A stretch of 45,182 bases of DNA from Clostridiales bacterium UBA1779. Lineage in GTDB: Bacteria; Bacillota; Clostridia; Oscillospirales; CAG-272. The translations under genes and the position numbers were made by a program. Of the stretch, positions 3,332-19,680 are shown piece after piece (the stretch's first letter is position 1; each line of letters opens with the position of its first letter). The DNA lies in the NCBI GenBank assembly GCA_002314565.1, contig DCGL01000116.1, positions 1 to 45,182 on the forward strand, given 5' to 3'. The notes under the pieces are model-generated. The model searched no databases, was not told the DNA's origin, and saw nothing but the letters and a program-made list of their open reading frames with translations.

Positions 3332-4576
3332 ATGGCACTGCACGAACCGCCTTCCGATGAGATGAAGGCAAAGGCAGTCAAGGATACCGAAGGCCGGGGA
3401 CCGAAAGCCCCGCACGATACGGAAAAAGAACCGAAAGCACCGAACGGTATTTTCAGAAAGCCGAGCGGAGAATATCAGGCAAAAGCACTGACGCCGGATG
3501 AAATCAGCGCCTTGCTTCCTTACTACGCCGACATCGGCGAAAGACCTCCTTTCTACAGACCGATTAAGAGAATCCTCTGGGACAGAAAGCTGTTCAGAGA
3601 ACGCAGAAAGCTGAGGAAGCAATTAAAGTACGAATTCCTGATGAAGTTAAAGCCCAGGGAATTCGAGGAGCTTGCAACCGAAGTCGGACTTGGACTTGAA
3701 CACACACCCTGGCTGCTTCTGTGGTGGTTCTTCAATTGGCTTTTCGGAGCCGGTGGACTTGCAACCCTGCTCGGACTCGGGCTGCTGGCGATGGGAGGAA
3801 TTTACGCTTGGTCTGCCATATCGGAGCTGGCGGGATCCTTCACGGTACAGATAAACTACAACACGATGCAGAGCGGTTTCGTTCTTTCGGAAACCGCAGA
3901 CTTTGCAGTAAAAACCGGACGACTGATAAGCACCGAGCTCGAGGGTGTCAACGCAATGACGCTTTCCGATCTTCCTAAGGATATCGACGAATATGACGGA
4001 ACAAGGAACGGTGCAAGATATGTGGCATATTCGTTTTACATCAGAAATGACGGAAATGTAGTTGACAGTTATGAATATGTCCTTCATATGTCGGACAGTT
4101 CAAGAGATGCCGACCTTGCAGTCTGGTGTATGCTTTTTGAAGATGGACATCAAATTATATATGCCGATGCTTCGGCTGACGGTGATCCGGAAAGAATCTG
4201 GGGATATAAAATACCGCCCTTCTACAATCTGGCCTACGATCCCGCAAATCAGTACTATCAGAAAGCGGAAGACAAGGACGGACGCTGGGGAATTCAGACC
4301 ACACCCTTTGAAAGCCGAGACGTTGTTGTCCGCGGAATCGTAACTGATATCGAACCGGGGGAAATACACAGATATACGGTTGTTCTCTGGGTTGAAGGCT
4401 ATGACCCCGAATGCACTGACAGCATCCTCGACGGATATGCAAAATACTATATGGAATTCAATCAGGTCGATAAAGAAAAAGTCAACTTGTTCTCGAACCT
4501 CTACCGCACTGAATTTGATAAGCCTCTGACACAGGGCGGGCTTGAAGAGTCCGAAGAAACACAGTCGGCTGAATGA
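3332..4576 (+). CDS. Group-A SipW-cognate-type protein 1: basic cytoplasmic N-terminal extension of about 125 aa, internal signal/anchor, TasA/camelysin-like candidate ectodomain
   Basis: An SD (AAAGGAG) lies about 6 nt upstream of the ATG at 3332. The hydrophobic span WLLLWWFFNWLFGAGGLATLLGLGLLAMGGIYAWSAIS ends in the I-Y-A-W motif shared with the paralogs. The C-terminal motif VVLWVEGYDPECTD (4379-4420) is shared with 5981-7018 and 7222-8838. Confidence 0.75.
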   Translation: MALHEPPSDEMKAKAVKDTEGRGPKAPHDTEKEPKAPNGIFRKPSGEYQAKALTPDEISALLPYYADIGERPPFYRPIKRILWDRKLFRERRKLRKQLKYEFLMKLKPREFEELATEVGLGLEHTPWLLLWWFFNWLFGAGGLATLLGLGLLAMGGIYAWSAISELAGSFTVQINYNTMQSGFVLSETADFAVKTGRLISTELEGVNAMTLSDLPKDIDEYDGTRNGARYVAYSFYIRNDGNVVDSYEYVLHMSDSSRDADLAVWCMLFEDGHQIIYADASADGDPERIWGYKIPPFYNLAYDPANQYYQKAEDKDGRWGIQTTPFESRDVVVRGIVTDIEPGEIHRYTVVLWVEGYDPECTDSILDGYAKYYMEFNQVDKEKVNLFSNLYRTEFDKPLTQGGLEESEETQSAE

Positions 4577-4752
4577 AAAAATCAGCCCAAAGAAAAAAAC
4601 ATCTCAGTAACTCAGAAACGACAAACACAATAATTCATCAAGAGACACCAAAGAAGCAACGCCTTCGGTTTCACAATAAGTTATCAATATTCCGAAGCCT
4701 GCCGGCAAAGGAAAAGATAAAAATAAAAAGTTTCAAAACAAGGAGAAACAAA

Positions 4753-5853
4753 ATGAAGCACCTCAAATCAAAACTGATTTCCGCTATCGCAATGCTTGCA
4801 GTAGCCGCTGTAATGATGACATCCGCCACTTACGCTTGGATGACCATTTCAACCAACCCCGAAATCTCTGATATCAAGGCAAACGTTGTCGCCAACGGAA
4901 ACTTTGAAATCGCCCTCGACGCCGGTTCAATGACCAAGCCCGGCGCTTCAACAACCAGCGATGCCGGCAAGAACGAAACCTGGGGTAATCTCGTAGACCT
5001 CAAGGGCGCATTCCAGACCTCTTCCGGTGGAATCGCAACACTTCAGCTCAAGCCCGTAGGAATCATCAGCTCTGCCATCACCGTTCTTGACAGCTCCGGA
5101 ATCGCCAACAGCTCAGGCGTTGTAGTATTCCAGTATCCCGAATACGGTAAAGACGGTAGAATTTCCAAGCTCACAAACCTCAACAGAGTCCGTGCAACAG
5201 ACGGTGCTGCCGACAACTTCAAGGATCTCGGCGGTGTATATTTCTACACAACATCCAGCGCAGTTAAGTCTTCCGGTATTTCCGACATCAGCTCCAACGA
5301 AGTTTATGCCGTAGAAATCGACTACTGGCTCAGAACCAATGCCGAAAATTCTTCCGCCATCACACTGGTAGCTCCTTCCTCCGGAATCAGCTCCAGCTCA
5401 ACACCCGACTCCGGTGTTTCAAGATCTGAAGACGCTGCCGATACATACGCCGGCGAAAACGGTCTCGGCTCATTCATCAGCATTGATACAGTTACAATCC
5501 TTCTTGCCGATACAACCGATAAGAAAGTATACGAAGCTGTTCCTTCTGCCATCGCTTCTTCATCCTTCTACTCCCTCGCTCTGAAGGAAGTTGAATGGAA
5601 AGAATCTACCAAGACATACGAAGTCAAGTCCGGCGGAATCGAATACATCAAGCTCGACAAGGACGAAGCCAAGCTTATCAGAATGTACATCTTCATGGAC
5701 GGTGCCGTTCTTGAAAACTCCGATGCAAAGCTTACTATGACTGAGTTCACAATGAACGTACAGTTCACAAGCAACAAGGAACTCACCGCTATGGACGTTC
5801 CCATGACTGATTACGACAGAGCCTCTGCCATCTCTTCCTCCGCTGCATGGTAA
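4753..5853 (+). CDS. Group-A SipW-cognate-type secreted protein 2; candidate major fibre subunit (TasA/camelysin-like candidate)
   Basis: I prefer the ATG at 4753 because a strong SD (CAAGGAGAAAC) lies 6-8 nt upstream. The leader is MKHLKSKLISAIAMLAVAAVMMTSATYA followed by WMTISTNPEISDIK. The protein is Ser/Thr/Ala-rich, and by eye its codons are more C-ending than those of its neighbours. Two hairpins follow the gene. The ORF track start at 4573 (ATGA overlap with the upstream stop) would add 60 basic residues, encoded by A-rich sequence that looks intergenic. Confidence 0.8.
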   Translation: MKHLKSKLISAIAMLAVAAVMMTSATYAWMTISTNPEISDIKANVVANGNFEIALDAGSMTKPGASTTSDAGKNETWGNLVDLKGAFQTSSGGIATLQLKPVGIISSAITVLDSSGIANSSGVVVFQYPEYGKDGRISKLTNLNRVRATDGAADNFKDLGGVYFYTTSSAVKSSGISDISSNEVYAVEIDYWLRTNAENSSAITLVAPSSGISSSSTPDSGVSRSEDAADTYAGENGLGSFISIDTVTILLADTTDKKVYEAVPSAIASSSFYSLALKEVEWKESTKTYEVKSGGIEYIKLDKDEAKLIRMYIFMDGAVLENSDAKLTMTEFTMNVQFTSNKELTAMDVPMTDYDRASAISSSAAW

Positions 5854-5874
5854 TCAATCACTGAAAAACAATAG

Positions 5875-5896
5875 TCCGCCGCTTAATTGCGGCGGA
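5875..5896 (+). terminator. GC-rich hairpin downstream of the candidate major subunit gene (possible partial terminator)
   Basis: TCCGCCGC (5875-5882) pairs with GCGGCGGA (5889-5896) around the 6-nt loop TTAATT. The hairpin starts 22 nt after the stop at 5853. No clear U-run follows. Confidence 0.35.
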
Positions 5897-5916
5897 TAAA
5901 TGCGCAGACACATTTC

Positions 5917-5980: not shown

Positions 5981-7018
5981 ATGAAAGGAGCAATCGATTT
6001 GAGCAAGCAGCTGAAAACGGTAATATCACTGGTTCTCACTGTGGCGGCGCTGCTGTCACTGGTCGGTGCCACGTATGCGTGGCTGACGATGTCGGATGCT
6101 CCTATGGTTTCAGACCTGGCTCTGTATCTCGTTTCAGACAACGATATGGCTTTTCTTGTGGCTCCCGATGTGGACGGAGAGCCGGGCGAATTCGGCCTGA
6201 TTTTGGATCTTTCCACAAGCTCACAAAGAGGGACGCTCTTAAAACCGGTCACCTTCTCGGCATCTCAGTTTGCCTTTCTTCTGCCCGAATACGCGCTTGA
6301 CGGCAGAATCAAAGCGGGCTCACCGATATACCTTGAAACGACCATAGATACACCGTCCATCTATTCACCTTATATCTCCCCGGCGGCAGACTCGGAGATA
6401 TTGGGTGAGTACGTATACAAGACAACGTTCTGGGTTAGAGCCGACGCGGTTCCGGTTGACGTTTCCCTTGCGTCGACGTTCACAAATACAGACGGGGTCG
6501 AAGTTACCGGAAGTTATCTTGTCGGCGAACCGATTTGGAATGATACTTCATATTATCACGAAAACAGCGGAAGCGGAGCCGAATATGCAATCAGAATCGG
6601 ACTTTACTTCTTCGGAACCGAAGAAGACCCCGATGACCACCGCTTCGTCATCATTGAACCCAACGCGGACGGCGGAAATGCCGTTCTGTACGACAGCAAA
6701 TACTTTACACAGAGCGTCGACGGCGAAGGAATGGACCTTGCAGCCGGCGACAAACGCGTTACTCTGATTCAGCAATACAGTTCAGGATGGAAAGAGAAGG
6801 ATCCCATTCTGAAGGGCGAGGTTGATTACACTTCAGGGAAGGTAATCGGCGACGACTACATAATCACAATACAGCAGGCAGAGACCAGAAAAGTTGAACT
6901 TTACGTCTGGCTCGAAGGAAACGATGCGGACTGTCTGAATACGATTTCTTCAGGCCGTATCATCGGAAACCTTGTGTTTGGTGCCGATATTTCCAATCTG
7001 CCTCTCAATCCCGAATAA
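5981..7018 (+). CDS. Group-A SipW-cognate-type secreted protein 3 (TasA/camelysin-like candidate)
   Basis: The leader is LKTVISLVLTVAALLSLVGATYA followed by WLTMSDAPMVSDL. The C-terminal motif is LYVWLEGNDADCLN (6899-6940). The EPNAD motif is shared with 7222-8838. The start is either ATG 5981 or in-frame TTG 5999, which sits 8 nt after AAAGGAG (5984-5990). Confidence 0.8.
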   Translation: MKGAIDLSKQLKTVISLVLTVAALLSLVGATYAWLTMSDAPMVSDLALYLVSDNDMAFLVAPDVDGEPGEFGLILDLSTSSQRGTLLKPVTFSASQFAFLLPEYALDGRIKAGSPIYLETTIDTPSIYSPYISPAADSEILGEYVYKTTFWVRADAVPVDVSLASTFTNTDGVEVTGSYLVGEPIWNDTSYYHENSGSGAEYAIRIGLYFFGTEEDPDDHRFVIIEPNADGGNAVLYDSKYFTQSVDGEGMDLAAGDKRVTLIQQYSSGWKEKDPILKGEVDYTSGKVIGDDYIITIQQAETRKVELYVWLEGNDADCLNTISSGRIIGNLVFGADISNLPLNPE

Positions 7019-7221: not shown

Positions 7222-8838
7222 ATGCCGAAAAACGCAAAGTCAAAGCTGATAGCGGCCGGAATTACGCTGTTGCTTTCATTTCTGCTGATGACCGGTACGA
7301 CCCTGGCTTGGTATACGATTTCAGTCAACCCCGAAATTTCCGGAATCACAATGTCGATAGCGGCTTTTGAAACCATACTGATAGCACGTGACGACAAGAA
7401 TGTTGAGGATCCTCACGACCTTGACTTTAAAGAAACGGTTGACATCAGTGACATAATGGTGTATTACAACGATCTGACCCCCGTTTCAACCGTCAACCTT
7501 CAGCAATGGTTCATTCCGACCTATGCCAGGGACGGAAAACCCAACGAGCCTGATAAGTTCATTATGGACGACAAGCTTGAATATGCCAACCGTCTGATGG
7601 TGGAAACGGATTCCGGCGGAATAGTATATCAGGTAACAACGAACCCCGAAAGCTCCTCTTCAATCACAATCTCATCGGCAATACCGCTGACTGGGCTTGA
7701 ATTGCTTGAAGCGGAAAAGAAAGGTTATTACGTCTATACGGACGTCTGGCTCAAGTCAACCGCCAAAGACGGTTCCGACGTAAGACTTTCATTTCCTCAG
7801 TATTCCATTGACAAAGCAAGCGCAGCCAACGAAATGGGCGGATTCTTCGGAACGTACGTTCTTCCTCAGATTTCACTCACGGTAGCTGACGACCACAGCG
7901 AATTTATCAAGTCCGTCAGCCGTAACGCCGAAACCTCTCTTCGGATAGGATTTCAGATATACGGGAACGGAATCGGATCCGGAGCAACGGACTATTACAT
8001 ATTTGAACCCAATGCAGACAGACACAGCGCAGATAACAAGCCCGACGGTGACGGAGAATACGTTGTTGGTTATGACGTGAATTCCTCGGCATATTCCGGT
8101 ACCTCAGCCTATGTCGACGGAGTATACATTCCGACTCAGCCGATAGGCTACGATTTCACCAAAGACAATGTTGAACCCATACCTCAGTATGATGAAAACG
8201 GATACCCGATATACCTCTATACCAAGGTCACAGATCCCGACTTGTTTGAAACTGTGACGTCCGGCCTGACCTTCTACATAGAGAAGGCGGGGACATATGA
8301 CGGATACACAATGGTTTCAAGAGCTCAGGCAAAAACCAAATACAGTGAAGGAACCGACGTGTTTACCAGAGAGCAAAAAACCGAAATGGGGAACGTACAT
8401 CACGCGTTTGCAATGGATCTTGACCCTGACCGTCTTATAGTCCAGATGGCAGGAGCCTGGAACACGGAAGCAGCGGGAACCCGTGAAAAGCTGAGAACAC
8501 AGACTTCGCTTAACTCAACGGATATCCTGAATTTCGGAAGCTTCGTTAACACAGGCCTGCTTTACGGCAAGCTGGCCGCCCTCAAAGAAGCAGGCGGAAG
8601 CGGAAAATTCTGCACGGTAAACGCAAGCAGCTATTATTCCGTATGTACTGCCCTGGAACCCGAAACGGACGAGCATTTCGTCATTTCCGGGGATAATACA
8701 TCACAAGTGCTTCTGCATCTCAATTACGATGAACCCGTAAAGGTCCGGCTCTTCTTCTGGGTCGAAGGACAGGATGCGGATTGCTGGAATGACATTGCCT
8801 CAGGCAGTTTCAGAGTAAATATAGAATTTGCCGGTTAA
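7222..8838 (+). CDS. Group-A SipW-cognate-type secreted protein 4 (largest paralog, TasA/camelysin-like candidate)
   Basis: An SD (GAAGGGGGG) lies upstream. The leader is KSKLIAAGITLLLSFLLMTGTTLA followed by WYTISVNPEISGI, close to the TISTNPEISDI of 4753-5853. The C-terminal motif is LFFWVEGQDADCWN (8750-8791). It also has YYIFEPNADRHS. Confidence 0.8.
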   Translation: MPKNAKSKLIAAGITLLLSFLLMTGTTLAWYTISVNPEISGITMSIAAFETILIARDDKNVEDPHDLDFKETVDISDIMVYYNDLTPVSTVNLQQWFIPTYARDGKPNEPDKFIMDDKLEYANRLMVETDSGGIVYQVTTNPESSSSITISSAIPLTGLELLEAEKKGYYVYTDVWLKSTAKDGSDVRLSFPQYSIDKASAANEMGGFFGTYVLPQISLTVADDHSEFIKSVSRNAETSLRIGFQIYGNGIGSGATDYYIFEPNADRHSADNKPDGDGEYVVGYDVNSSAYSGTSAYVDGVYIPTQPIGYDFTKDNVEPIPQYDENGYPIYLYTKVTDPDLFETVTSGLTFYIEKAGTYDGYTMVSRAQAKTKYSEGTDVFTREQKTEMGNVHHAFAMDLDPDRLIVQMAGAWNTEAAGTREKLRTQTSLNSTDILNFGSFVNTGLLYGKLAALKEAGGSGKFCTVNASSYYSVCTALEPETDEHFVISGDNTSQVLLHLNYDEPVKVRLFFWVEGQDADCWNDIASGSFRVNIEFAG

Positions 8839-8915: not shown

Positions 8916-9641
8916 ATGAACACAACAACCGAAAAAAACAAGAACAGTAAATCCGGAAAAGTGGGCAACATCATCGTTGACGTCATCCTTGTGCTTGCAA
9001 TTGCATTCTTTGCCGTCGTCGGATATTCTGCCTTTACGGCTCAGACCGGCGAGAGCGTTCCGAATTTCCTCGGCTTGAATATGTCAAAGGTACTGACAAA
9101 TTCAATGGAGCCCGAATTCTCAGCAGGCGATATGATTTTCAGCCGTACCGTAAAAGACGCTTCAAAGCTAAAGGTAGGGGACGTCATTTCATTCTGGACG
9201 GTAATCAACGGTGAAAAGGTTATCAATACCCATAGAATCGTTGAAGTTCTTGACGGAGGAACATTCAGATCTTTCACCACAAAGGGTGACGCGAATCCTG
9301 TAAACGATACGCTGACCGTTCATGAGAACAGCGTTATCGGTAAATACAGCTTCCATATCAGCGGCCTGGGCACTGCATTTGACTATCTGCAGACCTCGCA
9401 GGGCTTTCTGATTGTCATCGTTATCCCGGTGGCTGTGTTCTTCCTCTGGCAATTGATTCAGTTCTTCAGAGCGCTCTTTGCATATCAGGCCGAAAAAGTA
9501 AAACTTGCGTATGCGGCAGAGCACGGAATCAGAGTACCGACAGAAGACGAAGAAGGCTCGGGAAAAAGCGGCTCTGAACAAAAAAACGCTGTCGCAGACG
9601 GGGACGGAAATCCCGGAAAAGACACGGAAAAAACTGACTGA
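8916..9641 (+). CDS. sipW: Signal peptidase I, archaeal/ER type (SipW-like), with C-terminal charged tail
   Basis: It has an N-terminal TM (IIVDVILVLAIAFFAVVGY), the catalytic Ser box LTNSMEPEF, the His box NTHRIVEV, TTKGDANPVND, and a second TM (FLIVIVIPVAVFFLWQLIQFF). An acidic tail of about 57 aa follows. SD: GAAAGGTG. Confidence 0.85.
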   Translation: MNTTTEKNKNSKSGKVGNIIVDVILVLAIAFFAVVGYSAFTAQTGESVPNFLGLNMSKVLTNSMEPEFSAGDMIFSRTVKDASKLKVGDVISFWTVINGEKVINTHRIVEVLDGGTFRSFTTKGDANPVNDTLTVHENSVIGKYSFHISGLGTAFDYLQTSQGFLIVIVIPVAVFFLWQLIQFFRALFAYQAEKVKLAYAAEHGIRVPTEDEEGSGKSGSEQKNAVADGDGNPGKDTEKTD

Positions 9642-9846: not shown

Positions 9847-11478
9847 ATGGGCGGTTTTCTGAATTACTTTTACCAGGATTTCGGTTTGATTCTTAAATCA
9901 TTCTGGCAGATATTCGTGGATATTTTCAATTTCCTGAATACTCTGCTGAACTTCCCGGCAAGAATGAGAACAATACAGGCCTATTCCGAGGAATTTGACC
10001 TGCCGAGCTGGATACTCGTCGCAGTGGTCAATCTGCTGCTGATTGCACTGATAGTATTCGTAATTTTCCTGATTGCAAAGGGCGTTGCAAAATTGCTGAA
10101 ATTCCGCGCTCCTGCAAAGGAAAACGAGGAGCTGAAGGCAGAACTGGCAAAACTGAAGAGAGATATGTTCAAGCTCAGCTATGAGAAGGACAAGATTCTG
10201 GCGATGAAGATATCCCAGATGGGCTTTGTCCCCGAAGATGAGCTGCTCAGCATTGAGAACGAAGCAACCCGTGTTCTCGGTGAGGACGGAACTGTCAGAA
10301 ATGCAGAAAGCGAAGCCGAGGGTGAAGAAGAGAAAGCGGATCACGTTGACCTCGGAAACAGAAATACCTTCGACGGTCCTCCCATCAATCCGAGCGAAAG
10401 CCGATTCTTCAGACTTACGACTGTTGATAACTATTATAAGACCAATTTCCAGCCTCCTGTATACGATGATGCAATCACGCTTCCGGAATTCTGCGACAGA
10501 TACCGCAATTTTGCAAGTTCAAGACTGCGTCTGTTCTATGATATCAGTACCTTGAGATTCTTCGTTGCATCACTGGCTGCAACAAGACTTATCATTCTTC
10601 AGGGTATTTCCGGTACAGGTAAAACCTCACTGCCGTATTCATTCGGTAAGTACCTGATGCACGACACCACAATCTGCGCCGTACAGCCTGCGTGGCGTGA
10701 CCGTACCGAGCTTTTCGGTTACTTCAACGAATTTACCAAGATGTTCAACGAAACGGACTTCTTACGTGCGGTTTATGAAGCAAATATGTTTGCCGATCCC
10801 CACGTAATCGTTCTCGATGAAATGAACATCGCCCGAGTTGAGTATTATTTCGCCGAAATGCTTTCAGTCCTCGAAATGCCGAGACCTGAAGAATGGCTTG
10901 TCGATATCGTAACCACAACCTGGGACAATGACCCCTGCCTCATTTCAGGCGGTAAAATCCACGTAAACAAGAACACATGGTTCGTCGGAACCATCAACAA
11001 CGATGACTCGACCTTCGCCGTCGCCGATAAGGTTTACGACCGTGCAATTCCTATCGACCTTGACTCAAAGGCCGCAGCCTTCGCAGCTCCCGACACAGAA
11101 CCCGTACATATCACAGCCGACCATCTGTGCGAGATGTTCACAGAAGGCCAGAAGCTTTATCCTCTTTCCGAGGACAATATGAAGAAACTCGACGAAATGG
11201 ATCTTTACGTTATCAAGCATTTCCGTCTTGCGTTCGGAAACCGTATTATGAGACAGCTCAGACTCTTCGTTCCTGCTTATGTTGCCTGCGGTGGAACGGA
11301 AATCGATGCGCTTGACTTTATAGTAGCCAAGAAGATTCTTCGTAAGTTTGAATCACTCAATATGGGCTTTATAAAGGATGAACTTCACAAGTTCGTTCTT
11401 TACCTCGATAAATCCTTCGGAAAACAGAACTTCCAGATTTGCAAGGAATACCTCAACCGTATGCAGAAAATGTCATAA
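9847..11478 (+). CDS. Membrane-anchored McrB-family AAA+ NTPase
   Basis: The N-terminus has hydrophobic segments (FGLILKSFWQIFVDIFNFLNTLL and WILVAVVNLLLIALIVFVIFLIA) followed by a short coiled coil (ENEELKAELAKLKRDMFKL). Walker A is GISGTGKTS. The Walker B region with McrB-type continuation is VIVLDEMNIARVEYYFAEMLSVLE, and FVGTINNDDSTFAVADKVYDRA matches McrB GTMNTADRS...D.A..RR. I prefer ATG 9847 (GGTGGAG 6 nt upstream) over the track's GTG 9835. Confidence 0.8.
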   Translation: MGGFLNYFYQDFGLILKSFWQIFVDIFNFLNTLLNFPARMRTIQAYSEEFDLPSWILVAVVNLLLIALIVFVIFLIAKGVAKLLKFRAPAKENEELKAELAKLKRDMFKLSYEKDKILAMKISQMGFVPEDELLSIENEATRVLGEDGTVRNAESEAEGEEEKADHVDLGNRNTFDGPPINPSESRFFRLTTVDNYYKTNFQPPVYDDAITLPEFCDRYRNFASSRLRLFYDISTLRFFVASLAATRLIILQGISGTGKTSLPYSFGKYLMHDTTICAVQPAWRDRTELFGYFNEFTKMFNETDFLRAVYEANMFADPHVIVLDEMNIARVEYYFAEMLSVLEMPRPEEWLVDIVTTTWDNDPCLISGGKIHVNKNTWFVGTINNDDSTFAVADKVYDRAIPIDLDSKAAAFAAPDTEPVHITADHLCEMFTEGQKLYPLSEDNMKKLDEMDLYVIKHFRLAFGNRIMRQLRLFVPAYVACGGTEIDALDFIVAKKILRKFESLNMGFIKDELHKFVLYLDKSFGKQNFQICKEYLNRMQKMS

Positions 11479-11499: not shown

Positions 11500-13953
11500 G
11501 TGGCAGAAAAGAAGAAATCCGGCAAAAAGGAAAAGAAGAACGAGAAAATCGGTCTTATCGATCCCTTTTACAAAAAATACGTCAGCAGCGTAATAAAAAC
11601 TCTCAGCTCGGACGAATACTACAAGTATTTTTTGCAGGTCGTCAAGTCTGGAAAAAATGAATATAAGTTTTCAAACCGTCAGGTTGAGAAAACAGTTGAC
11701 GAAACGTGGGTAAATGCCGTTGAGTCAGTTATCAAGCCCATGCAGGAAATTATCAACAACCCCCGAAACTTCATTGTCCGTGAGCAGATTATCGTAAACG
11801 TTGCTCTGGCAAAAAAAGTTGAAGCGGAGACGATACGTCATCTTTGCAGCCACGGTGATATGATTGATGAGGTCAACGGCGATAATGTAAGACCGAACCG
11901 TCTTCTTGAAATCACAAAAGAAGACTCAATCAACACCTATGAAAACCGTTTTGTCTACACTCTGCTTGAAATGGCATGGGAATTCGTTGATATGAGATAC
12001 GAGGCAATTTTCGCTTCAATGGGTGAAGAATTCGGTTCTCACCTGAATATCAAGAGCGACAGCTTCGGTTATCTTGAAACCGTCAAGGCAGAGATGGATA
12101 TCAAAATCCAGCAGAACGAGGAACAGCTGTCTGCCGATGCGAAAAGCGAGGATATCTTTTCACGAATTTCAAGAATTCACAGAAACCTCGCAGCCTTCCG
12201 CTCAACCCCATACGCAAAGCAGATGTCGAAGTACGGCAAAGTTAAGGCTCCTATCGTTAAAACGAACGCCATCAAGAAAAACCCGAACTTCAAAGCCTGT
12301 CATAAGCTCTGGGACTTTATTATTGCATACAATGACGTAGGATACAAAATTGAAGTCAGAGAGCAGTCAAACGAGCTCGATGACGTCTTCCTCAAGGATA
12401 TGTACAACTCAATCCTGTACAATTATATGATTCTCAAACATCACCTTGAAGAAGAAAGAGACAGACTGATTGATTATTCAAAACCCGTAAAGAAAAAAGA
12501 AACGGTACCGAAATTCATCAATCAGGTAATTGAAGAACCCGTCGAAGACTACAATCTTCCGGATGTTGAAGTTAAGAGAGTCCTTATTGAGGAAGTGACA
12601 AAGGCAGACCTTATGAAGCTTGAAGAAGAGGAACGCCGCCGTCTCGTTGCCGAAAAAGAAAAGGAACTTCAGGAACGCAAAAAGGAAGAAGAACGCCTGC
12701 GCAAGCTTGCCGAAGCAGCAAGACGCGCCGAAGAGGAACGCCTCGAAAAAGAAAGAATCAAAGAAGAAAAACGACTCGAGCGCGAGAGAAGAGCGGAAGC
12801 CCTTGCAGCCGAGAGGGAAGCATACAGAAAAGCCGAAGAGGCAGAGGACTTCCTTACCGGTCTGACTGCCGCGCTTGAACTTGAAGAGAAAAACCGCGAA
12901 AAATACGTTGCAAAGCTTGCCGAAGCAAAGCGCCTTGCGGCTATTAGAGCCGAAAAAGAAGAAAAAGAGCGCATAGCAGCCGAAAAGAAGGAAGCTGCCA
13001 GACTTACTGCTCTTGAAAAAGCGGAACAGGACAGAATCAAGGCGGAACGTAAAGCAGAAGAAGACCGTAAGGCAGCAGAGCTTGCCGAGGCACAGAAGAA
13101 AGCCGACGAGGCAAGAATCATTTCAGAACAGGCCGAAGCCGAGAGACTTATCGCAGAGAAACGCGATGAACTTGATAAGCTGGAAGCCGAGATGAAGATA
13201 ATTGCCGAAGAAGCCGCAAAGAAAAAAGCGGAAGCGGAAGCTGCAGAGGAAAAACTCAATGCAGCACGTGCCGAAGCCGAGAAGCTTGCAGGCGAAGCCG
13301 CCGAAAAGGCAGAAGAAATCAGGCGTGAAACCGAAGGCTTCAAAGCCGAAGCCAAAGAAAAGCTTGAAAGTTCGATGGCTGCAAGAAATGCCGCCGAAAG
13401 CGAGCTTGCAGAAGCCGAAAAGACTGCAGAGGAACATAACAAAGCCAGACTCAATGCACAAAATGCAGCCAAGAAAGCAAAGGAAAAGGCCGAAGCTGAA
13501 ATACTTGCAAAAGAGAATGCCGACAAAGAGGCCGAAATTGCAGCAAAGAAGGCTGAAGAAGCAAGACTTGAAGCTGAGCGCCTGAGCACAGAAAGCAGCG
13601 ATGACCTTGAAAAGGCCAAAGCTGAGCTTGAAGACGCAAAGAAACGCGCCGAAGTCCTGCGTCAGGAAGCAAGACTTGCCGGGCTTGAAAAGGCAGCTGC
13701 ACTTAAAGCCGCAGCCGAAAAGGCAGCGGGAATCCGCAAACTTGACGAAGACAGCAGCAATATAGAAAAACAGAACAAAAAGCAGAAGAAAGCGGACAAG
13801 CTCAAAGAAAAGAGAGACCGCAAGCGTGCCATGGAAGCCGAGCAGCGTGAAAAACAGCTGCAGCGTACCCAGGAAGCCAAAGAAACACGCCAGAGAGAGC
13901 AGGAAGCTCTGATGGCTGCCGCACGCGAAGCTGCCAAAAAAGGCAAAAGATAA
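11500..13953 (+). CDS. McrC/DUF2357-like N-terminal domain protein with about 450-aa E/K/R/A-rich coiled-coil or single-alpha-helix tail; no nuclease motif seen
   Basis: The GTG start lies 9 nt after AGGAG and 21 nt after the AAA+ gene stop. The N-terminal 330 aa or so contain TYENRFVYTLLEMAWEF, which resembles the (T/D)xENRF motif of McrC/DUF2357-type partners of McrB. From about 12590 onward the sequence is continuous charged heptad-like, for example EEEERRRLVAEKEKELQERKKEEERLRKLAEAARRAEEERLEKERIKEEKRLERERRAEA. I could not find a PD-(D/E)xK pattern. Confidence 0.7.
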   Translation: MAEKKKSGKKEKKNEKIGLIDPFYKKYVSSVIKTLSSDEYYKYFLQVVKSGKNEYKFSNRQVEKTVDETWVNAVESVIKPMQEIINNPRNFIVREQIIVNVALAKKVEAETIRHLCSHGDMIDEVNGDNVRPNRLLEITKEDSINTYENRFVYTLLEMAWEFVDMRYEAIFASMGEEFGSHLNIKSDSFGYLETVKAEMDIKIQQNEEQLSADAKSEDIFSRISRIHRNLAAFRSTPYAKQMSKYGKVKAPIVKTNAIKKNPNFKACHKLWDFIIAYNDVGYKIEVREQSNELDDVFLKDMYNSILYNYMILKHHLEEERDRLIDYSKPVKKKETVPKFINQVIEEPVEDYNLPDVEVKRVLIEEVTKADLMKLEEEERRRLVAEKEKELQERKKEEERLRKLAEAARRAEEERLEKERIKEEKRLERERRAEALAAEREAYRKAEEAEDFLTGLTAALELEEKNREKYVAKLAEAKRLAAIRAEKEEKERIAAEKKEAARLTALEKAEQDRIKAERKAEEDRKAAELAEAQKKADEARIISEQAEAERLIAEKRDELDKLEAEMKIIAEEAAKKKAEAEAAEEKLNAARAEAEKLAGEAAEKAEEIRRETEGFKAEAKEKLESSMAARNAAESELAEAEKTAEEHNKARLNAQNAAKKAKEKAEAEILAKENADKEAEIAAKKAEEARLEAERLSTESSDDLEKAKAELEDAKKRAEVLRQEARLAGLEKAAALKAAAEKAAGIRKLDEDSSNIEKQNKKQKKADKLKEKRDRKRAMEAEQREKQLQRTQEAKETRQREQEALMAAAREAAKKGKR

Positions 13954-13963
13954 AGAGTATCAG

Positions 13964-14060
13964 GGATGACACGTGGACGGTTCTTCTGTCATCCGAGACC
14001 TCATCCGTCACGGCTATGCCGTGCCACCTATCTTCGTGGGGGTGGCAAGATGACAGAGGA
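13964..14060 (+). promoter_or_regulatory. Candidate structured RNA element with mutually exclusive pairings (between the coiled-coil gene and the second sipW-like gene)
   Basis: GGATGACA (13964-13971) pairs with TGTCATCC (13987-13994). The overlapping segment TTCTTCTGTCATC (13982-13993 region) can instead pair with GATGACAGAGGA (14049-14060; 9 Watson-Crick pairs plus extension). That alternative helix encloses two local hairpins: CACGGC-TAT-GCCGTG (14009-14023) and GCCACC...GGTGGC (14023-14046). Confidence 0.3.
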
Positions 14061-14156: not shown

Positions 14157-14984
14157 TTGAAACGCAGGACAGTCAAAAAAATAATATCGGCCGCAGTGAC
14201 TGTACTGCTTATATGCGCAACGGTGCTGTGCTTGTCCGCAATAATAGGAAGCTTGCTCAATGACGACCCTTCCGTTTTCGGATTCCGTGCATTTTACGTA
14301 CTCAGCGGAAGTATGGAGCCAACAATTCACGAAAGTGCTCTGGTGCTTGTAAAACGCTCGTCTGTCTATGAAATCGGTGACGTGATTACGTTCACGTCGA
14401 AGAATCCCGAAATATCCGGGGCTCCGAACACGCACAGAATCGTTGAGATTATTCAGAACGGAAAGAAAACGGAGTATATCACAAAGGGCGATGCAAATCC
14501 GACACCGGATGAAGAGCACGTTCTGGACTCCGAAATAATCGGACGTGTTGTATTCCATACCGGAGCCGTTGAATGGCTCGGAAGCTTTCTGGAATTTCTA
14601 ATGACAACCAAGGGATTTATGCTTATTGTGGTAATCCCGATTGTGGCAATCGTAATTTCCTGTCTCAGAGATTACGTCAAGGCTTACAAGGAAGCACTTC
14701 AGAAGGTACGCGAAGAGTATGAAAAACAATTGGCAGGGCAGTCTGCCAATGCTGAAAAAAACACGGATAATTTCAAAAACGAAAAAATCCCCGCAACAAC
14801 AGAAAACACTGAAGCTGCAGTCACAGAAATGCAGTATAATAACAAAAATACGGTCGGAAAACCCAAATCCGACACACAAGAAACCGACGCCCCGCAGTCT
14901 GAAGGAATGACGGGAAATAAAAAAGCCGATGGCAGAGAGGCCGGAAGCTCTGACGGAAAGGAATCGAACCATGAAGGACATTAA
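14157..14984 (+). CDS. sipW: Signal peptidase I, archaeal/ER type (SipW-like), with long C-terminal tail
   Basis: The start is TTG, 10 nt after GGAG. It has an N-terminal TM (IISAAVTVLLICATVLCLSAII), the Ser box VLSGSMEPTI, the His box NTHRIVEI, ITKGDANPTPDE, and a second TM (FMLIVVIPIVAIVISCL). A polar tail of about 107 aa follows. The 3' end overlaps the next gene by 14 nt. Confidence 0.85.
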   Translation: MKRRTVKKIISAAVTVLLICATVLCLSAIIGSLLNDDPSVFGFRAFYVLSGSMEPTIHESALVLVKRSSVYEIGDVITFTSKNPEISGAPNTHRIVEIIQNGKKTEYITKGDANPTPDEEHVLDSEIIGRVVFHTGAVEWLGSFLEFLMTTKGFMLIVVIPIVAIVISCLRDYVKAYKEALQKVREEYEKQLAGQSANAEKNTDNFKNEKIPATTENTEAAVTEMQYNNKNTVGKPKSDTQETDAPQSEGMTGNKKADGREAGSSDGKESNHEGH

Positions 14985-16266
14985 GAAAAGGGGACTTTTG
15001 ATGCTGATATCAGTTGTCCTGCTTCTTGGTATAGGAATATATATTACCTACGCATGGTACACCCGTATCACCGGTGTTTCCGCCATTGATTTCACTGCGG
15101 CAAGATGGGACTTCAACGCAAACTATCAGGCCGACAGTATCAAGGTCAACGTTTTCGAGTATGAATCGGTTTACGGAGGCAATATTGCGGCCCCCGGAAC
15201 AGCCGGAACGGTTAATCTGAAGCTCGGTGCCGAAGAGTCGGACGTTGACGTTGAATACATTCTGATGGTCGACCACGAAACGATGTCCGATGAGTTTCAG
15301 AAAAGAATATTCTTCTACTATACGGATGAAAACGGTGAGCAGGTTGAATTTGAATACGGGGTAAACGGTTTGTCCGGCGTTATCGCCGCCCGCAGCTCAT
15401 CAATTGTAGAGTTCAACTGGGAATGGGTCTACGATTATGACGGATACCTGGAAAAACTGGACAAAGAAAAATTTGTAGCTGCCTCAGGAATACTCAGAGT
15501 CCTGTATGACTCACCGATTGGAACGTTCACCACAATTGACGAATTCAAGGAATTGTACGAATATATCAGCAAGGATGCGGAAATTCTCAGTTCAGCACTC
15601 GTCAATCCGGGCTCCGGTGAGGACGGAACGTATTATCAGGTCCTGTCAAGCGCCGTATCGTTTCAAAGTCTGTGGAACAACAGACTGAGCGAGAGGGCAT
15701 TCAATGCTCTGCAGGTTATGGTAGGTATGACACCGGAAAGCCGCGCAATACTGTTTGCAAACGAAGCACAGTACGGAGGTTCAAGCAGCGCCATACTGAC
15801 ACTCGAAGAAATTGAAAAACTGAAGCCGTACAAAGATGCGAATGCGACCGATCCGAGTTGTCTTTATAATCTGTTTACTTCGAACTACGGCCCGGAAGGA
15901 GATTCGGCAACCGCAGATCTGAAAGAAAAATATGATATTATGCTGATTCTCAGAAGCTTTTCAAAGGCTCAGCGTGAATTGCTTTTTGCCAATTCGCAAT
16001 ATCTTGACAAGTGTTTCGGGCAGATAAATCTGGAAGTTGAAGGACAGAATTACAGCGATTCAATTGCCTATCTTGAGTATTACACAGCGGAACACGGATA
16101 TCTCACTCTTGAATCATTCTTTGAAGCGTATCTGTCTGAATATGAAGAATTTGACAGCTATGACAATAAAGTCGGGGCAAATCCGAAATATTATCAGTCT
16201 CAGATGACGGCAACGATTTACATTATCGGCACTCAGGTGAAACCTGAAGCCGTGGTCAATTCATAA
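14971..16266 (+). CDS. Group-B SipW-cognate-type secreted protein 5 (TasA/camelysin-like candidate with helical insert)
   Basis: I prefer ATG 14971 (AAAGGA about 8 nt upstream) over the track start at 14929. The leader is MKDIKKRGLLMLISVVLLLGIGIYITYA followed by WYTRITGVSAIDFTAARWDFNANY. The strand pattern IAAPGTAGTVNLKLGAEESDVDVEYILMV is typical of TasA/camelysin-like beta sandwiches. The C-terminal strand is MTATIYIIGTQV. Confidence 0.75.
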   Translation: MKDIKKRGLLMLISVVLLLGIGIYITYAWYTRITGVSAIDFTAARWDFNANYQADSIKVNVFEYESVYGGNIAAPGTAGTVNLKLGAEESDVDVEYILMVDHETMSDEFQKRIFFYYTDENGEQVEFEYGVNGLSGVIAARSSSIVEFNWEWVYDYDGYLEKLDKEKFVAASGILRVLYDSPIGTFTTIDEFKELYEYISKDAEILSSALVNPGSGEDGTYYQVLSSAVSFQSLWNNRLSERAFNALQVMVGMTPESRAILFANEAQYGGSSSAILTLEEIEKLKPYKDANATDPSCLYNLFTSNYGPEGDSATADLKEKYDIMLILRSFSKAQRELLFANSQYLDKCFGQINLEVEGQNYSDSIAYLEYYTAEHGYLTLESFFEAYLSEYEEFDSYDNKVGANPKYYQSQMTATIYIIGTQVKPEAVVNS

Positions 16267-16314: not shown

Positions 16315-17880
16315 ATGATAAACGGATACCGCAGATTCGAAAAAATCAGGCTCGTAATTGCCTGTGCGGCATTTTTGTGCGCTGTTGCCCTTCTTGTCTG
16401 CTACGCTGCCGTTTTTACCGTATCAAAATACAAAACCGAAATAGACGGATATACAAATTTTGAAATATCCTCATTCCATGCAATTCTTCTCGGCAATATG
16501 ACAAAAGAAGAAATAATGGAAACGTGGACCGATACGACCAAACAACTCACACTGTTCGGAGAGGAAGTATCGGTTGCCAATCTCTCTCCGGGAATGGAAT
16601 CCGCATGCATTCCGTTTTCCTTGTCGAACGGAACTTCCGTCGATGATATTTCGGGCATGGACTTTGAATTCACACTTCGCGTTCGCACGACAGGAAATAT
16701 TCCACTGACGTTCAGGCTTCTCTGGAAAGAAATCACCGAAATAAAGAATGCTTCCGGTCAGGTTATCGATACCGTTGAAACCGAGCATACTTACGTGACA
16801 AACGGTGAGTACTATCTCGAAGAAGGGGCGAAAGGCGATGCACCGAGATACATATACACTTTTGTTGAACAAAGGACGGACAACGGTATCACTTATACCG
16901 ACGATAATGAGCATTATTTCTATATGAGCGGCGGAACTCTCAGCGTTGAATCGTTTGAATTGCAGATGGACTGGCCTCTTGGAGTTGATGCCTACGGTGA
17001 TGATACAAACAGCTCGAAGTATATGAAAGAAGTTGACGTCATCGATATGCTTGCCATAATCAGCTCGAAAAACCGTTCCGAAACATATACCGGCTCATCA
17101 GGAACGCCGACATATTATTCTGACGGATATATTCTGGTTAAACGCGGAACAGGTAATTTCGGGTCCGAGACGGAGGGCGAAAGCTTTGTTCTTTCATTTG
17201 ATTTCAGAGCATTTGAAATTCAGAGCAGCGCGTCTGAATATACGGAATCTGATTATTCATTCGTTGTCGGAAACGGCAATGATATTTACAACGGCAGTGC
17301 AATATTAAATCCTACCACTTCTTCTTATACGAATTTCAAGCTTGAAATTGCCGTGCCGCTGACAGTGGATACACAAAGCAAGCAGGACAGTGTCAGAAGC
17401 TGTGCGATATACATTCAGGACGTTAATGACAGTAACGAAGACGGTGACAAAACCGATTATATTGAGATTACTTCAACCTCGATTTCGTACAGACTTTACG
17501 ATATAACCGACGATACATACGAAAGCTTTGAATCCAGAGCCGAGGCACTTGCTTATATCAATGATGCTGATTACGATTATGTGAAGTCAAATCTCAGAAT
17601 GTACAAGATTTACACACCTTCGGTGAACGACAATCAGGCACATTATTTTTCACTCAGTAATCTCGAAGCCGATGCTTCAATAAAGTATGACAGCCTGAAA
17701 TTCAAGATTCGTATGACGGGCAGCCCGATTACTTCCGTTACGGCGCTGGAAAACATTCCGAGAGTAGTTGTAACGGCATATTATGAAAATTCCGAAAGGG
17801 ATAACTCATCGCAGGGAACAACGGTTGATTCCGGTGCAATAGGATCCGGCGCGATTGATTCCGGTTCTGTAATCGGGTAA
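16315..17880 (+). CDS. Group-B SipW-cognate-type secreted protein 6 (divergent leader)
   Basis: An SD (GAAGGAGG) lies upstream. The leader is RRFEKIRLVIACAAFLCAVALLVCYA followed by AVFTVSKYKTEIDGYTNFEISSF. It also has LSPGMESACIPFSLSNGTSV. The C-terminus is a low-complexity Gly/Ser tail (SGAIGSGAIDSGSVIG). Confidence 0.7.
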   Translation: MINGYRRFEKIRLVIACAAFLCAVALLVCYAAVFTVSKYKTEIDGYTNFEISSFHAILLGNMTKEEIMETWTDTTKQLTLFGEEVSVANLSPGMESACIPFSLSNGTSVDDISGMDFEFTLRVRTTGNIPLTFRLLWKEITEIKNASGQVIDTVETEHTYVTNGEYYLEEGAKGDAPRYIYTFVEQRTDNGITYTDDNEHYFYMSGGTLSVESFELQMDWPLGVDAYGDDTNSSKYMKEVDVIDMLAIISSKNRSETYTGSSGTPTYYSDGYILVKRGTGNFGSETEGESFVLSFDFRAFEIQSSASEYTESDYSFVVGNGNDIYNGSAILNPTTSSYTNFKLEIAVPLTVDTQSKQDSVRSCAIYIQDVNDSNEDGDKTDYIEITSTSISYRLYDITDDTYESFESRAEALAYINDADYDYVKSNLRMYKIYTPSVNDNQAHYFSLSNLEADASIKYDSLKFKIRMTGSPITSVTALENIPRVVVTAYYENSERDNSSQGTTVDSGAIGSGAIDSGSVIG

Positions 17881-18039
17881 ATATACAGTATCCGGAACAA
17901 AAATTAAGACGGTAAACTGAACGACAGAAACAGGCAGAGAACGCCGGGCAGCAACGGAAAATGCGTCCAAAACAGCTAATAACAACGACGCATCTGATAA
18001 GCTAAAAATTACATTATTTCGAAACACCGCGAAAAAAAC

Positions 18040-19680
18040 TTGAATGCGAGAAAAAGACGGAAACAGGCAATGAGAAAACAGAGAGAGACGGAAAAAGGAA
18101 AAAACAGAATATTCAAGCTTATGCTGACGTCACTTCTGTGCCTGTGTTTGCTTTTTAACTGCTTTACGGCAATTCTGTCGGCAATCGGACTGCGCAGTAC
18201 TCTCAACTGGCTGCCGGGGGCATTTATGACGGTTGACAGTGCGAGTATGCAGCCTGAACTCAGTATAGGCGACCTGATTTTTGTGTGGAAGGTTCCATTT
18301 GAAGAGTTGAGTGTCGGTGACACAGTTACCACATACAGAAACGGAAGTTATACAACACACAAAATAGTGCGTCTTGAAGACGAAAAAATAATCACAAAGG
18401 GACTTGTCAACGCAATTGAAGACAGTCCTGCTGAAGATACGGATTATTTTGCAAAACTGATTTTTTCAATACCCGGTGCCGGAGCCGCATATTCTGTTGT
18501 GTCATCCGGTTGGATGGCATTTCTGTGCATATGCCTGATTCTTGCCGCCTTCCTTGCACGCCCCGTATTCGAATACTGTATCAGACGTCAGAAGAAGCTT
18601 CGCGTAAGCCTGCTCAGAATCAGTTCCGCTTTGTGTGCTGCAAGCTTTATGCTGATTCCAAGCACGATGACTCTTGCAAAATTTACCGGAACCGTCGGGG
18701 CCGGTAAAACCGCCGCTGCTGCCGAGGTGAATTTCAGCAGCAATTATCTGACTGAAAACGGAAACATTTACGACATCGTAGGATGGGACGGAAGCGATTA
18801 CAAGCTTTTGGTAAAAATCAATAACTACGCCAACATTCTGAAATACAACGAAGAAGGCGTTGATCTGGGATATACGCTTGAGTATGAGAAAATTACCGAA
18901 CAAGGCGAGCAGACCTATCCTTTGGATTACACAATTTCCGTTGAGCCGATTGACGGTACATCAATTGATTCTTCCGGCAATGCGCATTCAATTGCGCCGG
19001 CATATACAGCCGAGGAACCTGTTGCAATAGTCAGCGGAGGAATTCAACTCGGAACGAGGAAAGGACCGTACTCAATTGAAGGCGGAGCCAAAACAGCTCA
19101 CTTTTTCCAGGTTACTGTCAATGCCAAAACTCAGAGCGGACTATCATTGTCTGAAGGAGATAAAGTCTGTTTCAGAATCAAGGCTTCCTCATTAATCGGC
19201 AGCGGTTATATATCCGATTTGTATGCGGATTTTACAATGACTGTTACGACAGCCAGTGAGTTTATCAAAAGCCGTTCGATTGAACAGGGAAACGGAGTTG
19301 CTCTTGTTAAATTCAATATAAAATCAGCCACACTGCTCGGACTTGCCTCTCAGGAAATCGTGATTAAATGGCAGAATGATATGCTTTATCCGAACATGTA
19401 CGAAACCAACCTGTGGAACCTGAGAGAAAACGGTCTCTGCACGGTTGACGAAGCAAATTGCGAAATGAGGTTTACCATGTCGGCAACGGCGAGTATGACC
19501 TTTGAATTCAACAAGTTTACCTCACGGCTTAACGATACCGTTTATCAGCGAATGAGAAAGTACGTGGAAAAAGACTCGTTGGGCCGCACTATACGGGAGT
19601 ATATAGAAATCGAACTGAATGATACCTACGATACCTTCCCGGATGGGGACGTTGAAATCATTCATGATGAAACCACATAG
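18040..19680 (+). CDS. Fusion protein: divergent SipW-like signal peptidase domain + internal SipW-type signal peptide + group-B substrate-like domain
   Basis: The N-terminal 190 aa or so contain a TM (LMLTSLLCLCLLFNCFTAILSAIGL), the Ser box VDSASMQPEL, the His box TTHKIVRL, ITKGLVNAIEDSP (the KGD(A/N)N box is degenerate) and a second TM (WMAFLCICLILAAFLA). Next come a basic n-region (RRQKKLRVSLLR), an h-region (ISSALCAASFMLIPSTMTLA) and KFTGTVGAGKTAAAAEVNFSSNY with about 330 aa of mature-like domain. The start is uncertain: TTG 18040 or ATG 18070. Confidence 0.75.
   Translation: MNARKRRKQAMRKQRETEKGKNRIFKLMLTSLLCLCLLFNCFTAILSAIGLRSTLNWLPGAFMTVDSASMQPELSIGDLIFVWKVPFEELSVGDTVTTYRNGSYTTHKIVRLEDEKIITKGLVNAIEDSPAEDTDYFAKLIFSIPGAGAAYSVVSSGWMAFLCICLILAAFLARPVFEYCIRRQKKLRVSLLRISSALCAASFMLIPSTMTLAKFTGTVGAGKTAAAAEVNFSSNYLTENGNIYDIVGWDGSDYKLLVKINNYANILKYNEEGVDLGYTLEYEKITEQGEQTYPLDYTISVEPIDGTSIDSSGNAHSIAPAYTAEEPVAIVSGGIQLGTRKGPYSIEGGAKTAHFFQVTVNAKTQSGLSLSEGDKVCFRIKASSLIGSGYISDLYADFTMTVTTASEFIKSRSIEQGNGVALVKFNIKSATLLGLASQEIVIKWQNDMLYPNMYETNLWNLRENGLCTVDEANCEMRFTMSATASMTFEFNKFTSRLNDTVYQRMRKYVEKDSLGRTIREYIEIELNDTYDTFPDGDVEIIHDETT

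Follow-up and report, generated by a model that had tools for sequence, protein, structure and literature searches.

A conserved clostridial locus joining archaeal-type signal peptidases and leader proteins to an McrBC-derived GTPase pair, a candidate surface-fibre or adhesin system

Why should genes for several signal peptidases and a set of proteins with similar membrane leaders enclose a pair of genes related to the restriction proteins McrB and McrC? This question is raised by positions 3332-19680 (+ strand) of contig DCGL01000116.1 of Clostridiales bacterium UBA1779, a stretch of 45,182 nucleotides that was analysed as a whole and is referred to below as the window. An earlier note, made from the letters of this DNA, had read the interval as a heteropolymeric surface-fibre system of SipW/TasA shape. 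Here we show that the peptidases, the leader proteins and the McrBC-like pair form one conserved unit across several families of Clostridia. With moderate confidence, we favour the reading that the locus is an operon which builds or displays a fibre or an adhesin array on the surface of a monoderm cell, is linked to cyclic di-GMP and has the McrBC-derived GTPase as its engine or gate.

Gene content was read from the listing of open reading frames (ORFs), six-frame scans and Joint Genome Institute (JGI) gene calls; gene starts and intergenic gaps follow the JGI calls on the source contig EMG_10000631 (61.6 kb; JGI metagenome 3300001598). The interval contains 11 genes, all on the + strand, instead of the 13 counted in the earlier note:

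3332-4576, + strand: G1, bitopic membrane protein of 414 amino acids (aa)
4753-5853, + strand: G2, leader protein of 366 aa (..SATYA/WMT)
5981-7018, + strand: G3, leader protein of 345 aa (..GATYA/WLT)
7222-8838, + strand: G4, leader protein of 538 aa (..GTTLA/WYT)
8916-9641, + strand: G5, signal peptidase I of the archaeal/endoplasmic reticulum (ER) type, 241 aa (TIGR02228)
9847-11478, + strand: G6, membrane-anchored McrB-like GTPase of 543 aa
11500-13953, + strand: G7, McrC-like partner of 817 aa (DUF2357 and helical tail)
14157-14984, + strand: G8, second SipW-like signal peptidase I, 275 aa (TIGR02228)
15001-16266, + strand: G9, leader protein of 421 aa (..ITYA/WYT)
16315-17880, + strand: G10, leader protein of 521 aa with the second class of leader (..CYA/AVF..SKYKTE)
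18070-19680, + strand: G11, fusion of a peptidase and a leader protein, 536 aa (..TLA/KFT; TIGR02228 and hhalign)

No other protein of the locus is as well conserved as G6, whose linkage to the locus is strict. G6 has more than 8,000 relatives in a set of 5.8 billion proteins, the first 120 of them with full-length identities of 55-100% and almost all without a name, and 746 representatives at E <= 1e-30 in a library of 1.84 billion representative sequences. Identity is 70-78% to the closest relatives and 45-58% to relatives in other families. A scan that used one genome per GTDB species detected G6 relatives in at least 573 genomes. Eighty loci with a G6 relative were fetched, and the window proteins were mapped onto all their ORFs with BLAST and hidden Markov models (HMMs). 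In these loci, G6 has 45-70% identity to that of the window; they represent Oscillospiraceae, Ruminococcus, Lachnospiraceae, Acutalibacteraceae, Butyrivibrio, Roseburia and one metagenome-assembled genome (MAG) of Bacilli. Among the carriers are the cultured strains Lachnospiraceae bacterium 10-1 (KE159821.1, about 116.6-138.2 kb; locus L049), Ruminococcus sp. FC2018 (NZ_JHXH01000001.1; locus L041) and Ruminococcus sp. CAG:488.

The block is conserved in 80/80 of the fetched loci, from different families, with one gene order throughout: a facultative gene for an HD/EAL-like protein, G1, one or more leader proteins, a peptidase, G6, G7, a facultative leader protein, a peptidase, more leader proteins and, often, a very large surface protein. 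G7 adjoins G6 in 76/76 loci. Among the 50 loci flanked by 6 kb or more at each end, 49 encode a peptidase, 38 have a downstream peptidase and 33 have peptidases on both sides of G6; a G1-like gene is present in 48, at least one gene with a W-type leader on the same strand in 44 (median of three per locus), and the HD/EAL-like gene in 37 (53/80 overall). Thus, the peptidases, leader proteins and AAA+ pair stay together in other genomes, and the claim of the earlier note that the pair is integral to a conserved multi-component system is borne out.

G6 consists of a conserved N-terminal segment of 57 residues, a transmembrane (TM) helix (residues 60-78; Kyte-Doolittle hydropathy of 3.35), a K/R-rich DivIC/FtsB-like coiled coil and an AAA+ domain. 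The Pfam DivIC model (FtsB family) aligns with residues 69-136 over 1-72 of its 80 positions, but with an E-value of only 0.12. As a single sequence, G6 yields only weak matches to AAA_5/McrB models; a profile of ten G6 homologs matches E. coli McrB (6hz4) over the AAA+ core with an E-value of 1.7e-4. The Walker A (GISGTGKT) and Walker B (VIVLDE) motifs and N-N-D-D (residues 388-391) are invariant; the last fits the pattern of NxD plus a second D and is compatible with the one-residue deletion of the NxD variant, yet in a pairwise comparison HMMER aligns it to N-T-A-D of McrB without gaps. G6 contains no N-terminal DNA-binding domain, the TM helix and coiled coil being there instead. Its first 57 residues (window positions 9847-10020) are rich in aromatic residues, with F4, Y7-F8-Y9-Q10-D11, N35, R39 and W55 invariant. 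By the positive-inside rule, the GTPase domain is predicted to be cytoplasmic and the N-terminal segment to lie outside, where it could form a contact site for extracellular parts.

In G7, the DUF2357 domain (the N-terminal domain of McrC, approximately residues 1-375) was recognized at 36.3 bits (cut-off of 23.3 bits; E-value of 4.8e-9) once the low-complexity tail was trimmed, the full-length protein having no match in Pfam; 19/19 homologs match the same model. A G7 profile compared with PDB sequences gave only a chance match to DotF, and neither a PD-(D/E)xK or other nuclease domain nor a TM segment was detected in G7 by Pfam scans and TM analysis. The tail is 445 aa long, with 72% E+K+R+A and 0 Pro, and in homologs its length runs from 0 to about 640 aa; the composition indicates a coiled coil or a single alpha-helix acting as a spacer. 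Over the tail, AT skew reaches 0.449 across 12001-14000, and an antisense ORF (12669-13619, - strand, 316 aa, Ser/Ala-rich) was set aside as a side effect of the coiled coil's coding strand, which is rich in purines; both features look like consequences of the purine-rich codons (GAA/AAG/GCA) of an E/K/R/A helix. The pair thus fits the description in the earlier note of a membrane-anchored McrB-like NTPase (nucleoside triphosphatase) with a long coiled-coil partner. Like McrBC and CoCoNuT, the pair joins an AAA+ protein of the McrB type, bearing Walker A, Walker B and N-x-D/N-x-x-D motifs, to an adjacent DUF2357 partner; unlike them, it has lost the DNA-binding domain and the nuclease, and its genomic context consists of surface proteins, not restriction or defence genes.

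An association of this kind has been named CoCoPALM by Bell et al. (2024, eLife 13:RP94800; PMC11090510), in two sentences, with the analysis deferred to a later paper. As described there, an FtsB-like TM segment and coiled coil are fused to a McrB-like GTPase of a CoCoNuT-like branch, whose GTPase signature is an NxD variant that mostly has D or E next to it; a McrC homolog with a coiled coil and nearby genes of the signal peptidase family accompany the GTPase. Apart from the NxD variant, with which N-N-D-D of G6 is compatible, all these components are found in the window: the McrB-like GTPase, the TM segment with the coiled coil (the FtsB likeness being weak), the adjacent DUF2357 protein with its helical tail, and three signal peptidase genes. 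We found nothing that contradicts membership, and the locus very probably belongs to the CoCoPALM class. The statement of the earlier note that the system could not be matched to any described machinery was therefore too strong, given that the association had been named, if in passing; our literature search found the name in no other paper. Beyond the published text, we observe here a superfamily of leader proteins with G1 as its proposed anchor, a fusion of peptidase and substrate, a partner of the HD-GYP/EAL-like kind, adhesins bearing CBM or MBG domains, and archaeal/ER-type peptidases whose catalytic residues are intact.

The three peptidases all score above the cut-off (51.85 bits) of the NCBIfam model TIGR02228, signal peptidase I of the archaeal type: G5 with 94.7 bits, G8 with 101.9 bits and the N-terminal third of G11 with 52.7 bits. 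The identification in the earlier note of three archaeal/ER-type homologs is thereby confirmed, together with the motifs that it quoted, namely SMEP, SMEP and SMQP; THRIV, THRIV and THKIV; and KGDANP in G5 and G8, replaced by KGLVNA in G11. The layout of TM segment, domain and TM segment is that of SipW (in G5, the TM segments are at 19-37 and 163-181). The scores of the three peptidases with the Bacillus SipW equivalog NF046067 are 19-100 bits against a cut-off of 190 bits; judged by these profiles, G5, G8 and the N-terminal domain of G11 are of the same type as SipW but are not SipW orthologs. In an HMM alignment of 125 peptidase homologs from related loci, the catalytic Ser and His are kept in 121, and the other four are unaligned at those columns; G5 keeps Ser, His and Asp. 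This conservation argues that these proteins are probably working peptidases rather than dead chaperones of the SipA/LepA kind. A sortase-assembled pilus was considered and rejected: G1-G11 lack a C-terminal LPXTG, the ORFs of the window include no sortase, and the peptidases keep Ser and His, unlike the dead S26 chaperone of such pili.

In G11, the peptidase domain (residues ~25-185) is followed by a TM segment or internal leader (189-207) and a domain of about 340 aa that belongs to the leader-protein family with the YAKY motif (c12), which is free-standing in Lachnospiraceae loci (hhalign, 97.4% over 271 columns). By this homology, G11 is a genuine peptidase-substrate fusion, as the earlier note had proposed, in which the third TM segment would act as an internal leader.

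In six or seven window proteins, the membrane leader ends in [TC][YL]A. The seven endings listed in the earlier note are all present, but that of G1 (IYAW) is not conserved in the G1 family and is probably coincidental. G3 and G4 are full-length paralogs (hhalign, 100%, E-value of 4.5e-44), and the N-terminal region of G2, comprising the leader and the first domain, is homologous to both (hhalign, 99%). Relatives of G2 are 600-1875 aa long, with the conserved N-terminus 'STYAWFTLSTAPEVTGI..VGANGNLEIAL'. The ectodomain of G1 corresponds to the C-terminal two-thirds of G3 (G1 residues 220-381 against G3 residues 135-338; hhalign, 98.1%). Thus, G1-G4 are demonstrably one superfamily with a common beta-sandwich ectodomain. 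G3, a candidate shaft subunit, has an all-beta domain with conserved YEPN and W-x-EG-x-D-x-DC motifs. Across the G1/G3/G4 superfamily, Y-E-P-N and W-x-E-G-x-D-x-[DE]-C-x-N are invariant (for example, at 6900-7000, 8740-8830 and 4380-4450). The acidic cluster and the lone Cys of the latter motif suggest a metal (Ca2+) site.

G9, G10 and the C-terminal domain of G11 show no detectable kinship to G1-G4 in hhalign comparisons, each matching a different leader family of the Lachnospiraceae type: G9 matches c11 (97.5%), and G10 matches c10 (93.9% over 53 columns only, a weak link). The G9 family (cluster 4) is represented in 17 loci; G10 has no BLAST relatives in the 80 loci. Of the seven proteins grouped in the earlier note, only G1-G4 are thus demonstrably of one superfamily, and the rest fall into other conserved families. 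Most proteins of the locus (G1-G4, G9, G10 and the C-terminal domain of G11) have no Pfam or NCBIfam family; for G1-G4, G9 and G10, this includes searches with N-terminal fragments at E <= 10. In FC2018-type Ruminococcus loci, the gene with a W-type leader is found upstream of the core but in reverse orientation (- strand; L028:6138-7091, L038:6250-7080 and L041:6288-7097). It follows that not all members of the system are in a single transcription unit.

G1 is a bitopic membrane protein, with a cytoplasmic region containing a basic helix, one TM segment (approximately residues 137-157) and the extracellular beta-sandwich. In the G1 family, the cytoplasmic basic helix is conserved, and there is no conserved cleavage-type motif at the end of the TM segment. 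G1 is best read as an uncleaved bitopic membrane anchor or base, and it is the membrane-anchored member with a cytoplasmic domain that the earlier note had described.

The likeness to TasA drawn in the earlier note gained no support from profile comparisons, and structure comparisons told neither for nor against a TasA fold. The Pfam model Peptidase_M73 had no match among the window proteins or among 117 leader-protein relatives (E <= 0.1). The model of the SipW-cognate signal, TIGR04088, matched none of five window leaders (E <= 10) and two of the 117 relatives, both borderline, the best at 19.1 bits against a cut-off of 19 bits; three relatives have weak matches to a TapA model. On this evidence, the window leaders, while similar in shape to the SipW-cognate signal, would constitute a divergent class. 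A profile of the G3 family compared with PDB sequences produced only chance matches to TM helices. AlphaFold2 models of G3 (pLDDT, the predicted local distance difference test score, of 69.8; predicted template modelling (pTM) score of 0.70) and G1 (pLDDT of 71.1, 80-92 in the ectodomain) each begin with an N-terminal helix and continue as an all-beta sandwich. Foldseek searches of PDB with both models yielded no match at E <= 1e-3, and none of the best 50 was a TasA chain, the top matches being generic beta-sandwich, PA14, CBM and cohesin domains. One TasA-like structure, the archaeal bundling pilin 7ueg, recurs weakly (E-values of 0.11 for G3 and 5e-3 for G1; template modelling score (TM-score) <=0.32).

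The block is flanked by other genes of the same orientation, four upstream and the giant ORF downstream, so that 16 co-directional genes run from position 363 to the end of the window:

363-947, + strand: TetR-family regulator (TetR_N, E-value of 4.3e-6)
966-1430 and 1450-1773, + strand: two small ORFs, outside the conserved system
1776-3284, + strand: protein with an HD domain of the HD-GYP type (HD_5, E-value of 1.5e-17) and a weak EAL-like C-terminal domain
19861-45182, + strand: giant surface protein running off the window, with an ordinary Sec signal, MBG_2 (eight copies), CopC-like and Big_13 domains

The HD_5 domain of the 1776-3284 protein contains the HD-GYP-like sequence HERWDGTGFP, and the match of its C-terminal part to EAL is weak (E-value of 0.11). 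The two halves of this gene are fused in Oscillospiraceae, whereas Lachnospiraceae have only the HD half, and Acutalibacteraceae and CAG:488 only the EAL-like half. Fused or as single domains (e.g., L049:7374-8036 and L060:5454-6206), these HD-GYP-like/EAL-like proteins are always encoded directly upstream of the G1 gene. The split-or-fused pattern argues for a functional link to the locus, of which the 1776-3284 protein is likely to be the cyclic di-GMP input. No riboswitch or other RNA, and hence no cyclic di-GMP riboswitch, was found by an Rfam scan of the whole window.

On the source contig, the giant ORF encodes 10,425 aa. Its signal is an ordinary Sec signal, without the leader shared by the proteins of the system; the first ~4,000 aa have no Pfam match, and the recognizable domains are confined to the later part. 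Tandem Repeats Finder detected no DNA-level tandem repeats in it at a score >= 100. The N-terminal part is weakly similar to large downstream proteins of three related loci (L025, L035 and L078), and large surface proteins with a Sec signal (1.7-10.4 thousand aa) are encoded downstream in at least 21 related loci. The giant protein is likely a co-regulated adhesin or cargo. In Ruminococcus loci, large proteins that do have the leader of the system carry Flg_new repeats and CBM26 (L056:16564-20943 and L042:18853-21510), domains which suggest that these loci may display starch-binding adhesins for adhesion to the substrate. The earlier note had placed the locus between a cyclic di-GMP module and a giant adhesin; both are present, but they are more than mere neighbours, both kinds of gene recurring in related loci, and the system is therefore larger than the interval delimited in that note.

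The remaining upstream genes are of a different kind. Neither the TetR gene nor the second small ORF has a BLAST relative in the 80 loci, and the first small ORF has one only in L001; together with a promoter at 61-89, which has a perfect sigma-70 consensus, they look like a lineage-specific regulatory add-on. Promoter and terminator scans of the window were otherwise at chance level, apart from a weak terminator-like site at 19893-19913. A Shine-Dalgarno-like tetramer, at least partial, lies no more than 21 nucleotides upstream at 12/15 gene starts, a frequency not compared with chance expectation; the earlier note had ascribed such sites to the genes of the block, but G3, G11 and the giant ORF lack them. 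The start/stop overlaps that it had reported appear only when the longest ORF starts are chosen, and the gaps are 16-205 nucleotides under the JGI calls.

If the locus does build or display a surface fibre or adhesin array, its parts could work together as follows. The leader proteins G2, G3, G4, G9 and G10 and the C-terminal domain of G11 would be exported by Sec and tethered by their N-terminal signal-anchors. Two or three Ser/His peptidases would then cut after the small-x-small sequence [ST]-[YF]-A, freeing a conserved N-terminus that begins with W-F-T-L-S. The freed beta-sandwich subunits would assemble on G1, their uncleaved membrane homolog, probably through the conserved N-terminal strand, with the larger leader proteins bearing binding modules and the giant MBG-repeat protein supplying adhesion, as tip or side adhesins. 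On the cytoplasmic side, G6 would form a ring under the membrane, held by its TM segment and coiled coil, with the 57-aa segment outside and with G7 plugged in by its DUF2357 domain. GTP hydrolysis by G6 would gate or power assembly, export through the wall or retraction, and the HD-GYP/EAL-like protein would couple the process to cyclic di-GMP.

Several points weigh against this scheme. The predicted cleavage after YA derives solely from the (-3,-1) rule, and the failure of TIGR04088 to match the window leaders counts against it. The fold of the subunits is not demonstrably TasA-like, with the best Foldseek E-values at 1e-3 to 2e-2 and TM-scores no higher than 0.32, and the leader proteins could be separate proteins associated with the wall or membrane rather than parts of a polymer. 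For the GTPase domain of G6, the nearest relatives are proteins with a candidate role in defence (PADLOC PDC-M26A and the CoCoNuT clade). Members of the class are known from genes alone, with no experiment on any of them. We know of no fibre system that uses a McrB-like GTPase, so that the role proposed for G6 and G7 would be assigned by analogy only.

The alternative that fares best holds that the locus encodes not a pilus but a machine for the export, wall passage or anchoring of giant adhesins, in which the leader proteins and G1 form a conduit or scaffold and the GTPase powers passage or tensioning. The large Sec-signal proteins encoded directly downstream, in the window and in related loci, fit this explanation, as do leader proteins that themselves exceed 1,800 aa. 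There is also a precedent in Clostridium perfringens, where BsaA, a SipW-processed TasA-like polymer assembled by donor-strand exchange, needs NTPase components of the type IV pilus for efficient release, a case of NTPase-assisted passage of a matrix polymer through peptidoglycan (PMC11580942). It is a precedent for the favoured scheme as well. However, many loci with full flanks have no giant gene within 10 kb, the giant ORF of the window has an ordinary signal peptide in place of the shared leader, and the locus encodes no polytopic membrane protein that resembles a channel. We regard this explanation as unlikely, if still to be reckoned with.

A SipW/TasA-type biofilm-matrix operon of the ordinary kind, with energy-free self-assembly by donor-strand exchange and the McrBC-like pair as a regulator or sensor, appears rather improbable. 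Like tapA-sipW-tasA of B. subtilis and sipW-bsaA-bsaB-bsaC of C. perfringens, the latter being the closest experimentally studied analogue, the locus combines dedicated signal peptidase I of the archaeal/ER type with secreted beta-rich substrates, several of them paralogous, whose leaders end in a small residue, an aromatic residue and Ala, followed by an aromatic residue. The SipW type of the peptidases, the shape of the leaders with the best of the borderline TIGR04088 matches, and the weak recurrence of 7ueg for the G3 and G1 models all favour this explanation. To our knowledge, TasA fibres and archaeal bundling (Abp) pili need no NTPase, and none is known for Abp pili. The Abp pilin AbpA (PDB 7UEG) resembles the proposed subunits in its beta-sandwich and its archaeal-type signal peptidase, but the Foldseek likeness is below significance. 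Unlike the two Sip operons, the locus has substrates that are not Peptidase_M73/TasA proteins by profile and peptidases far below the SipW equivalog cut-off; it has two or three peptidases against one, and adds G1, the McrBC-derived GTPase pair and the cyclic di-GMP gene. Furthermore, the strong conservation of G6 and its strict linkage suit a central component with a mechanical or catalytic task better than an ancillary regulator. What the locus has in common with TasA systems is the shape of the leader and the type of the peptidase; homology to TasA or identity of fold would go beyond this evidence.

An anti-phage or conflict system derived from McrBC and akin to CoCoNuT, with the surface proteins as sensors, decoys or exclusion factors, would account for the match of the G6 GTPase domain to the PADLOC candidate family PDC-M26A (E-value of 1.9e-38), for the place of G6 in the CoCoNuT-like NxD branch by architecture, and for the observation that, of the best 150 matches in the representative library, the majority (600-870 aa) cover only the GTPase region and are probably CoCoNuT-like coiled-coil McrB homologs. 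We nevertheless consider it very improbable: no nuclease or other effector domain is encoded, G7 having only DUF2357 and the helical tail; the neighbours are adhesins and a cyclic di-GMP gene, not defence genes; the syntenic context is stable in hundreds of species; and PADLOC recognized no defence component in G1, G5, G7 or the HD protein. Systems of the McrBC kind are mobile and are frequently found inserted in islands, but the chance insertion of such a cassette into an unrelated cluster of peptidase and surface-protein genes has next to no probability, being ruled out by the order of genes, with G6-G7 between the same partners in all 80 loci, from Oscillospiraceae to the Bacilli MAG, and by the adjacency of G7 and G6 in every locus compared.

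If the fibre or adhesin reading is right, a surface system has taken over a GTPase of the restriction type as its cytoplasmic engine or gate. A bolder proposal, which we advance tentatively as a possibility, is that CoCoPALM loci represent a new class of NTP-dependent surface-filament machine in monoderms. In it, peptidases of the signal peptidase I type, in place of a prepilin peptidase or a sortase, would release the subunits, and a nuclease-less ring of McrBC-derived GTPase would drive or gate their assembly, passage through the wall or retraction by way of a homologous base subunit anchored in the membrane. If true, this would add a new paradigm of pilus assembly to sortase pili, type IV pili and passive fibres of the TasA type. 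The CoCoPALM class has already been named, and its anatomy is unpublished; the present analysis adds a parts list, conserved motifs and cultured carriers, and the role of the McrBC module is therefore directly testable. The system is found in hundreds of species of Oscillospiraceae, Ruminococcus and Lachnospiraceae from gut and rumen. The ways in which such Clostridia attach to mucus, starch and fibre are poorly understood, and a filament machine of this kind would be widespread among them, serving adhesion to substrates such as starch, for example, via CBM26.

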